Position numbers and translations under genes: made by a program
From: Ascidiella aspersa
Lineage: Eukaryota
NCBI GenBank assembly: GCA_963924565.1
Contig: OZ004608.1
Location: 17,298,001-17,362,000 of the forward strand
Direction: 5' to 3'
DNA: 64,000 nucleotides
Shown here: one piece after another, positions 6,301 through 9,300 of the stretch
Layout: the number at the start of each line of letters is the position of its first letter
Position numbering within the stretch: position 1 is the first letter of the stretch
Notes under the pieces: generated by a model
What the model was told of the DNA's origin: nothing
The model's input: only the letters and a program-made list of their open reading frames with translations
Database searches by the model: none

Positions 6301-9300
6301 CTAATTTGGGCACATTTTTCCTTGTAACATAGCTCAAACTAAACAAATTTGGGCACTTTTTTGGTCGTACAAAGCTCGAATAAATACGGTTGTCACAGTT
6401 CTAAAAATACGGTTGTCACAGTTCTTTTACTGATAAAAAAGTATTAAAAAATGCTTTAACACCAGTGGTTCGCAACCTTTTTAGCTTACGGACCGGTAAA
6501 ATTTCAAAACAAAGACAAAAGTGACAACTAAAAGTCTTCTTAGCTTCCACATGCACATACAACTGGTCTTAAAGTTTAAGATTTAAACAAGCTGTAGCCC
6601 ACTTTTGAACAGTTGGGTACAACACTTGCAGCATTGTGATGTATGATAAAGTCTAAAGTAGACCATTAACTGTATGTTAGGCCACAATGCTGCAATTACA
6701 GAACTGTTGAAGTTCTAAATTTAATAGACAAGCCTTCAACATCTTGCATTTTGCAATTGGATATAAAATTGTAATGAAAATATTTGGCAGACTGGCAGAA
6801 GGGTTGACGGGGATCAGCGGTTGAACACCACTGCTTTACACGCCTCTACTTTACCGTTTTTTTTAACCTAAAAGTTTTTAGCATAGTATTTCTCCTAGAG
6901 CTGAAATGTATTTGTATTTTTTGTATCACACTTTTTACTCTTTGATATATTGATAATAATGTGTTGTCTTTGCTGATCAATATTTTCAAATTGCCAATAT
7001 AAGGTATATATGACCTCTCTTTGTCTTCGCCTTTGCGGTTGCCACTACCATTAACTGATGACGCTAGGACTATTCTTTTATTTTCCGAGACAACCCTAAG
7101 TCAACATTGTTGCGATAAGAAATATCCAAGGATCTATGTGGTTATTCTTTTTCCTATTTCTTCTTAATTTAGGATCATTATCCTTAACACCAACGGCTTT
7201 GTTTTTAAAATCACTGCTGTACAACAGTATCTTTCTGTAGCTTGTACAGCCGGTTTTCTTACTGAGATTGTTAGAATGCTGTTAAGGTTGTGATTGCTCG
7301 TTTTAGTAGCCTACATGGAAATTTATGAAAAAAAAGAAAAACTGTTGTTAAAAACTGTTGTTTTAAGAAAAAAAAGAAAAACTGTTGAATTTAGTGACAT
7401 ACAAGACTTTAAGGAAACATGAATTGGTGTACCAATGTACTACACTCAAACAGTTCATAGCTCAAATGCTAAAGGAGCTAAAGATACAACACTAAAAAAC
7501 AAAATTTTTTAAATTTGATTTTTTAAATTTTGTACTTGGTATTAGCAATTCAATGTATATAATAAATAGTTCGGTATAACAAAAGTACATATATCAACTA
7601 CATAATTTTGAATATTTTGCATTGAATTAGGCTATATCCTAATGATAAATATATTTCTTTAGTATAACATTCAAAAAAAGCCAATGACTGTAAAAGAGTT
7701 CCGGCGCTTGACAAACACTCCAAGATACGAGCCACCTTTCCATGAGAGCTACGAGGAGCTGGAGAGAATGTACTGGAAAAACATTACGTTTAATCCACCA
7801 ATTTATGGTGCTGATATCAGTGGTTCGCTGTATGACGAGGTAGCTTTGGAAAACTTTTTTATGTGTCTTTATAGATAAATTCAAAAAACAATAGTACTGC
7901 ATACACTATGCACGGATCTGTAATGTAGCTTAATAATAAATTACAAAGCCAAAAAGGTCAAGTAAATCGACATCATCTTGATTAAGACGTTTCGATACGA
8001 CCTTGTATTATCTTCAGTTAATGCGTATTGAAACGTCTTCAACAGGATGTGGATCTACTCGACCTTTCGCTATTGTAATTTTACACTACTTCACATAAAA
8101 TTGTGAATTTTTTGACGCCTTTTTTGGATCAATACTAACTTGTCAGGCAAGTATTACTGAAGTATAGTAATGAAAATTCCAAACGCTGTTTTTTAATCTA
8201 TGTTTGTAAACACTATTTAGGTGTCAAATGGTAATTGCTTATTAAGGGTGTTAAAGAGTGGAATGTGGCACACCTGGACACGCTGCTCGATGTTATTGAA
8301 CTGGACAGCGGGGTCAAGATTGAAGGAGTCAACACAGCCTACCTTTACTTTGGTATGTGGAAGACTACCTTCGCCTGGCATACCGAGGACATGGACCTGT
8401 ACAGCATCAACTATGTTCACTTTGGAGCCCCTAAGTCATGGTAAAGTTTAAAAAATATATAAAAAAATGTTGTTATTTGTAAATTTCGGTAAAAATTGTT
8501 GTTTTTTTGCCGAAATAATCAAGTGCTTACAAAACATGTTTTTGTGCTGACTTTTTGGCGTTAGTGTCATTATGGAACTTATCGTTTTCTGCTTGCAATA
8601 AGATTAAAATATTCTTTGTCTAAATCAGAGGTGTGCAACCTTTTACAGCCGGACCAAAATTGTGAATTCGGATTAGACCACGAGCCACTTGCATATATCT
8701 GGTCGACTACCCGTTTTAGTGACTACCACGAAAAGAAAACCGTTTCGTTTTTAGTTTAATGAGATTTAACGGAAAAGCTTTAAAATCACTTTAACGAAAG
8801 TTTTCAGTGGCTTGCTTTCCCAACCACAAACATTCCTATCCAGGTTCAATTGGATTTAAGTGCTGGCAACCCGAGGTCTATTCTCCAGGTGTACTTTAGT
8901 TAGTTCTGAGCGATGAGGGGATTTCATGAACCCAATTTAGAAAATAATAAACGTACGTTCAACCGAACAATGCAATCTGTGAAGTAACAAATTTTCTTAG
9001 CTGTGGAAACTTATTTAGATCTAGATGATTGCGGGGAAAAAAAATACTTATTAGCTGTGCGCAGAGAGAAATTTGTTTCTTTTTTTTACAACTCAAATGA
9101 ACATTGAAATTGATTGAAAAACAATAACATTTCAAATGAGTTAAAACGATCAAGCTGCCATTCTTTATTATGCTTTATATTGCTATATGGACCACAATAT
9201 TAAAATCATTTCAAGAACAAAAAAATTTGCAGCGCTCAGGGCAATCCATACATTCAACTTTCACACAACTCATACACTTTCCGCAACAGCATCCAAAACC

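Follow-up and report, generated by a model that had tools for sequence, protein, structure and literature searches.

The window, the whole stretch of 64,000 nucleotides of Ascidiella aspersa DNA analysed here, contains two short imperfect inverted repeats at positions 7902-8081 (copy 1) and 24608-24814 (copy 2). An initial sequence-only reading described a hairpin-like element present twice, about 17 kb apart; the two copies are indeed separated by 16,677 nt and are 82% alike over 100 nt. Both inserts are predicted to lie within introns, as that reading had also proposed, on the evidence of translation, GT-AG dinucleotides and Pfam matches on other exons. Copy 1 falls in a phase 0 GT-AG intron on the plus strand (7840..8246) of a gene whose exons flanking this interval translate as a JmjC histone-demethylase-like protein. 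Copy 2 shares a GT-AG intron on the minus strand (22862..24970) of a PP2A B56 gene with a neighbouring Penelope-like element (PLE); most of the B56 domain of this gene is encoded by one long exon, 26686-27762 on the minus strand (Pfam B56, E 1.5e-112).

Several other repeats and frames were observed in the window. A hairpin element at 18898-19164 has 121-nt arms that are 88% complementary. Palindromic repeats at 1049-1276, 5050-5274 and 27857-28078 make up a dispersed family bearing CCCTAACCC-like motifs, which may be a MITE or a Helitron-type element. Tandem arrays occupy positions 5662-6383 (unit of about 42 bp), 13471-13812 (41 bp) and 51171-51563 (131 bp), and a 480-aa open frame at 62538-63980 (+) encodes a cysteine-rich stretch followed by many STKGAKG-type repeats.

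Both inserts are built of two oppositely oriented pieces of the same pLTR. The pLTR is numbered along the minus strand from window position 8023 (+1). On this scale, +7 is the first position of the hammerhead core, cleavage is predicted after +38 and the modal 3' end lies at +125. The tail-bearing arm of copy 1 (7902..8023, minus strand) covers +1 to +122 with six differences from the modal letters of the family; it starts 1 nt past the modal 5' breakpoint and ends inside the tail. The inverted, tail-less arm (8024..8081, plus strand) corresponds to about +23 to +84 and is decayed, with 11 differences over 62 positions. In copy 2, the inverted tail-less arm (24608..24722, minus strand) runs from about +94 back to -21, extending into sequence 5' of the hammerhead, and the tail-bearing arm (24722..24814, plus strand) spans +33 to +125. 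The centre of copy 1 thus joins pLTR position +1 to +23, and that of copy 2 joins about -21 to +33. The sequence-only reading had given the element the geometry of the ORF-bearing Penelope, two pLTRs facing outward, with no coding part; both copies are pLTR-only, their polarity is opposite and their centres differ. The partial AACGUC motif that it noticed on the opposite arm is a truncated stretch of this same pLTR. The junction pattern of each window copy has one match genome-wide, so each is unique. A candidate target site duplication (TSD) of copy 1 is a short 7-bp direct repeat of 7902-7908 at 8082..8088, with a score of 7 that is reached by 31% of control pairings and is not significant; for copy 2, a weak candidate at 24819..24828 repeats 24600-24609 at nine of ten positions (score 8, reached by 13% of controls).

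A minimal type I hammerhead was assigned to copy 1 by a descriptor and by reading against the family letters (7981..8022, minus strand). Read from 8022 to 7981, it is ATTAA-CTGAAGA-T-stem II-GAAACGTC-TTAAT and comprises a 5-bp stem I, CUGAAGA, an extra U, stem II and GAAA-CG-UC, with predicted cleavage after 7986. All core letters of the ribozyme proposed earlier are intact, but stem II pairs at only four of five positions; G10.1 has changed to A (8009), which breaks the conserved G10.1-C11.1 pair. Copy 2 (24658..24699, minus strand) keeps this pair and combines a perfect stem II with a decayed core, just as the sequence-only reading had it, with three core substitutions at G5, A6 and G12. The PLE minimal-hammerhead pattern, CUGANGA-N-stem II-GAAA-palindrome-UH with a short stem I, fits the modal family letters and the copy 1 core and fails on the core of copy 2. 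The descriptor search proposed with that reading returned three motifs in the window (the minus-strand one of copy 1 and one in each pLTR of the neighbouring PLE), against 0.025 expected from 200 mononucleotide shuffles. An Rfam scan gave no match to a hammerhead family, returning only sub-threshold matches to miRNA-type hairpins. The ribozyme of copy 1, on the minus strand of a plus-strand host gene, is antisense to the RNA of that gene; in the predicted fold, forcing stems I and II yields -47.9 kcal/mol against -64.7 for the hairpin, a cost of 16.8. Given this cost, the core damage and the antisense orientation, ribozyme activity in the inserts is predicted to be unlikely. The ribozyme would be a passenger there: decayed, antisense or sequestered by the hairpin.

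The neighbouring PLE (22954..24597, plus strand) has a broken reverse transcriptase (RT), a GIY-YIG domain (23796-24449) and inverted pLTRs. It belongs to a different family from the inserts, in agreement with the earlier claim that their pLTR is not that of the ORF-bearing Penelope nearby. An exact 11-bp TSD (22943-22953 and 24598-24608) abuts copy 2; since the neighbour has its own TSD adjoining copy 2, nesting of copy 2 inside the pLTR of the neighbour is not supported. The neighbour bears its tail on the inverted arm, its ORF-side pLTR is cut about 11 nt past the hammerhead there, and its hammerhead at 23074-23043 is intact and in the sense orientation relative to the B56 intron. A DNA search with this family gave 570 first-look candidates. 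The tails of the two PLE families (22956-22975 on the minus strand and 24795-24814 on the plus strand) are alike near their 3' ends, and both lie within an ATG-started frame resembling PLE N-termini, hinting at a common RT start signal. Of six additional inverted pieces listed for the neighbouring family, two (L167 and L172) start 7 nt ahead of the hammerhead core. This offset equals that in the family of the inserts, yet no TATA-like box is evident there.

A search for a parent PLE carrying the pLTR of the inserts, suggested by the sequence-only reading, was successful. With tblastn and the reading of ORFs at 30 loci, RT and GIY-YIG sequences were seen to be followed by this pLTR; in the longer copies, the end of the GIY-YIG ORF lies 5' of the pLTR, and the RT lies further upstream. 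A 433-aa piece of the parent matches RVT_1, the match on locus L045 being above the Pfam cutoff, and has 183 homologues of at least 759 aa at E<=1e-20, the best of them 37-39% identical. The GIY-YIG piece of the parent has no Pfam match and is 47-59% identical to the Pfam-positive domain of the window PLE. On reading, the RT-EN linker of the parent pieces contains no cluster of cysteines, which would suit Penelope/Poseidon in the definition of PMC8557442, where these clades, unlike Neptune/Nematis, have no zinc-finger-like motif in this linker. The longest piece of the parent lacks the 5' part and measures about 1.9 kb. A search for a full-length parent, covering 14 matches to the RT piece that lies furthest upstream and 30 of the 32 tail-extension loci, found none. 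Direct partial-tandem copies of the form pLTR-ORF-pLTR were also absent from the loci examined, in searches that score top candidates only. The genome-wide search that had likewise been proposed found an exact 25-nt tail word at 547 places, and the reversed word, used as a control, had no matches; a DNA search with the element gave 2,617 first-look candidates, of which the best 40 were scored. The inserts are firmly assigned to the class of pLTR-only end pieces of an ORF-bearing Penelope-like family.

The architecture of the family was studied in 80 regions, representing the first 81 of 100 listed places (of the 547) in position order; one region held two tail-word places, of which one was analysed. 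Seven loci with duplicated flanks were dropped, leaving 73 independent copies, a sample in which old and tail-less copies are under-counted because it was picked by the exact tail word. Clusters with the same flanks (L126-L129, L130-L133 and L103-L104) are local segmental or tandem duplications carrying the insert, and one copy lies beside a 548-aa LINE frame (L094:1625-3270, plus strand), APE-endonuclease/RT-like and named from its motifs. An adjacent inverted arm is present in 52 of the 73 copies and absent from 21. Sizes range from 40 to 1,275 bp with a median of 170, and 67/73 copies are at most 300 bp long. The tail, about 30 bp, is one-sided, occurring on one arm only; the arm bearing it ends near +125, and the outer end of the inverted arm is mostly at +86 to +104. 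That the template continues past +125 is seen from 30 loci, where a shared extension gradually fades, and the tail lies within an ATG-started frame with a weak alignment to PLE N-termini (4.8 bits; 3/1,200 shuffles higher). Copy 1 suggested that inverted arms decay faster, an idea rejected for the family (7.6% versus 7.7% across 33 paired arms; Wilcoxon p 1.0).

The sequence-only reading had advised checking whether copies share fixed boundaries and whether they show TSDs of the DNA-transposon type. Inner boundaries are not fixed: inner ends range from -1130 to +93 and junctions vary continuously, with an overlap or filler of at most 3 nt in 35 of the 52 inverted copies. When all 80 loci and the two window copies were examined for TSDs, 37/82 reached a score of at least 10, against 0.5% of 400 mismatched pairings. 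The duplications are often 10-14 bp, vary in length in a LINE/PLE-like manner rather than being of fixed length, and commonly overlap the end of the inverted arm by a few letters. A DNA-transposon MITE, in which a hammerhead-like motif arose by chance within inverted repeats, would share the inverted-repeat geometry, the small size and the high copy number of the family; however, the two ends are unequal (a fixed tail versus a variable tail-less end), TSDs differ in length, and the repeated sequence forms the 3' end of an RT/GIY-YIG element. This link with the PLE ORF refutes the explanation, whose probability we regard as negligible.

Two origins were offered by the sequence-only reading, extreme 5'-truncated inverted insertions of a second PLE family or a MITE-mimicking, retrozyme-like non-autonomous element. 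The former is favoured by the parent ORF, the variable junctions and the LINE/PLE-like TSDs. The latter, a ribozyme-bearing mini-element (a MITE-like palindrome or a retrozyme) that amplifies via its own RNA, is unsupported given the unfixed inner boundaries, and we consider it very improbable. Copies are mostly short and non-coding, as such an element would be, and the share of modal letters is slightly higher at core positions than elsewhere (840/890, 94.4%, versus 6419/7061, 90.9%), but this excess partly reflects subfamily variants at non-core sites. Eight pairs among the 52 inverted copies have junctions at most 3 nt apart, a similarity attributable to the pile-up of ends at position 0, described below, and to microhomology. 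Against amplification of the mini-element stand the single genome-wide match of each window junction and the lack of a direct tandem copy within 400 bp upstream (0/73 copies). G is found at position 10.1 in 66/71 arms of the sample, but an intact core with the 10.1-11.1 pair is retained in just 27/73 copies, and only 5/73 span two whole hammerheads, on opposite strands. In one raw RNA-seq run with the same species label, about 6% of which was read and aligned to the parent piece, pLTR reads are abundant, as a transcribed mini-element could produce, and come from both strands; however, 94% of the aligned reads continue into unlike flanks, as host-transcript passengers would, and the ORF is barely covered.

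The 5' ends of arms are not spread evenly over the pLTR. At -6..+5 lie 32 of 125 ends, or 32 of the 86 within -60..60 (binomial p 1.3e-11), and of the 56 arms that reach the position-0 edge, 32 stop there. Around the cleavage site (+35..+43) there are only 2/125 ends, and a model of breakpoints at the ribozyme cleavage site was rejected. The position of the pile-up, before the hammerhead and not at the cleavage site, suggests that many stubs are likely run-off copies of uncut RNA, primed within its first ~125 nt. Genome-wide break patterns were collected with 20-nt cores, classed by eye and counted after removal of matches in which the upstream sequence of the element continues; breaks were seen in 63/93 matches at position 0, 23/27 at -2 and 9/33 at -4. 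Position 0 lies 30-31 nt downstream of TATAAG in an initiator-like context, and a spacing of 30-31 nt between TATA and start is well established. These motifs and the breakpoints together suggest a candidate pLTR transcription start at position 0. An extra cap-type G before the breakpoint is weakly enriched (20/63, p 0.03) and was not retained as a start mark. No pile-up of read ends on the pLTR was seen in the RNA-seq run, standard RNA-seq being ill-suited to show one. A splice-acceptor-like pyrimidine tract with CAG immediately precedes position -2, but a spliced exon or leader joined at this acceptor was rejected, as no constant upstream sequence occurs in the 27 (-2) and 33 (-4) matches; a third subfamily mimicking the pile-up was rejected as well, since upstream letters differ among breaks. 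We found no report of a start-site pile-up in pLTR-only inverted insertions in the non-subscription literature searched; the supplement of PMC11167929 (Fig. S2, genomic ends) may already show a similar 5' boundary.

The relation between the two arms bears on how the inverted structure is formed. In 33 of the 52 inverted copies the 5' reach of the tail-less arm exceeds that of the tail arm by more than 5 nt, and the tail is on the tail arm only. Each arm then has sequence that is absent from the other, so neither is a fold-back copy of the other, and two cDNAs were likely joined head-to-head. The remaining 19/52, in which the inverted arm reaches no further 5' than the tail arm, do not discriminate and are permitted by an alternative with the same parent, in which the inverted arm arises from one cDNA by fold-back self-priming, possibly on an antisense template, a model raised in PMC3846280. 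The detection of RNA reads on both pLTR strands also agrees with fold-back, as do the common subfamily alleles of the arms, which at diagnostic site 81 disagree in 0/28 cases against 12.9 expected; this sharing also counts towards the two-cDNA reading, but may simply reflect which subfamily was then active. A variant of the alternative invokes random truncation, with the pile-up at 0 caused by a splice acceptor or RNA structure. It can draw on the pyrimidine tract and CAG before -2 and on the intron of Drosophila virilis Penelope, which ends at helix I (PMC4209133). However, the peak is at 0 and not at -2, the breaks at -2 and -4 have no constant upstream exon or leader, and pausing at the 5' side of a helix that has already been melted appears unlikely. 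With the private sequence of both arms in 33/52 copies, these observations make fold-back or random truncation improbable in our judgement, less so than the mini-element.

We therefore prefer two-strand target priming, for which the following scheme is proposed. The PLE protein would nick an AT-rich site on both strands, the nicks lying about 10-14 bp from each other, and two cDNAs would be primed inside the RNA, one near +125 and the other near +95, the second priming being aided by microhomology with the target overhang. The two cDNA ends would then be joined with little overlap or filler. Priming in the first pLTR of the RNA would let the cDNA run off the 5' end of the transcript, the putative run-off point being the A that immediately precedes stem I of the hammerhead, some 30 nt downstream of the TATA-like box; the main arm of copy 1 resembles such a run-off product. 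Priming in the 3' pLTR would let the cDNA read further upstream, as in the inverted arm of copy 2 and in the ORF-bearing copies. In either case the template is likely to be RNA uncut by the hammerhead. Internal priming at two sites on both strands would match the behaviour of anole Poseidon in vitro (PMC11167929).

The mechanism of two cDNAs with run-off at the start site is well supported by the junction statistics, from which we infer it. That the inserts are head-to-head, pLTR-only end pieces of a PLE, likely formed by two-strand target priming and likely inactive after insertion, we hold with good confidence. A further proposal, that much of the copy number derives from dual-strand priming in the first ~125 nt of uncut template, yielding 5'-complete mini-cDNAs that are joined head-to-head and not randomly truncated ones, is more tentative, with chances that we place just short of even. 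If it were true, the hundreds of junctions would chart in vivo where PLEs prime internally on both strands and would show that RNA uncut by the hammerhead is the template; the ribozyme, located between the cap and the start codon, would act on another RNA pool, e.g. mRNA.

These results matter in several respects. Repeat annotators could mistake such PLE pieces for MITEs. The formation of inverted pLTRs and the role of PLE hammerheads are stated as open questions in PMC8557442 and PMC11167929; hundreds of short junctions provide a genomic test, which favours two cDNAs over fold-back and an uncut over a cut template. The same junctions point to a candidate start site at pLTR position 0.

In most features the family resembles described EN+ PLEs, such as Pen2a_Av of Adineta vaga (PMC3846280 and PMC8557442). 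Shared traits are an RT with a C-terminal GIY-YIG domain, head-to-head pLTRs, a tail of about 30 bp on one arm, a variable TSD near 10 bp, TATA-like and Inr-like pLTR motifs, and an ORF start inside the pLTR and tail. These papers already describe inverted truncated pLTRs, one-sided tails and TSDs for PLEs; a pLTR with TATA and Inr motifs is reported in PMC3846280, and the Penelope transcription start site is located within the pLTR in PMC8557442. In contrast to the EN+ PLEs described there, more than 90% of the copies sampled here are at most 300 bp long, many being two pLTR arms alone, and the breakpoints map a sharp 5' run-off point; a full-length copy was not found.

The hammerhead agrees with those of metazoan PLEs, as given in PMC4209133, in its helix I of 4-5 bp, the extra base between positions 9 and 10.1, the G10.1-C11.1 pair in the family and the palindromic ACGU that replaces helix III. 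Dual hammerhead motifs 100-700 bp apart on opposite strands were already reported there. Helix II is 5 bp here versus 7-8 bp for S. mansoni, and, compared with the hammerheads of that study, both window copies are damaged and cleavage is predicted from sequence.

For Poseidon of Anolis carolinensis, PMC11167929 describes in vitro cleavage and extension of both strands with uncut RNA as the dominant substrate. The inserts are similar in having two putative internal RT start points on either side of the tail, AT-rich targets, probable extension of both strands and no sign of cleaved RNA as a template. The ATG of Poseidon lies at stem II, whereas here the likely ATG is 10 nt past the cleavage site, and priming occurs 111-118 nt into the Poseidon ORF, whereas here it would fall about 78 nt into the frame; Poseidon was studied in vitro, and the family of the inserts is known from its genomic copies.

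Animal non-LTR retrozymes (PMC7229834; bioRxiv 10.64898/2026.07.22.740005) are likewise short, non-coding and pLTR-related and carry a type I hammerhead. They are described as head-to-tail tandems with canonical hammerheads and circular RNAs, whereas the inserts are head-to-head, have variable junctions and carry at most one sense ribozyme per strand. The single RNA-seq run, of a type not suited to detecting monomeric linear or circular RNAs, gave no end pile-ups that would point to them. Very short PLE insertions, with a median of 128 bp, are documented in PMC9977147, and the inserts are mostly ordinary mobile DNA, PLE debris with a known PLE architecture, and not a new ribozyme-driven mini-element.
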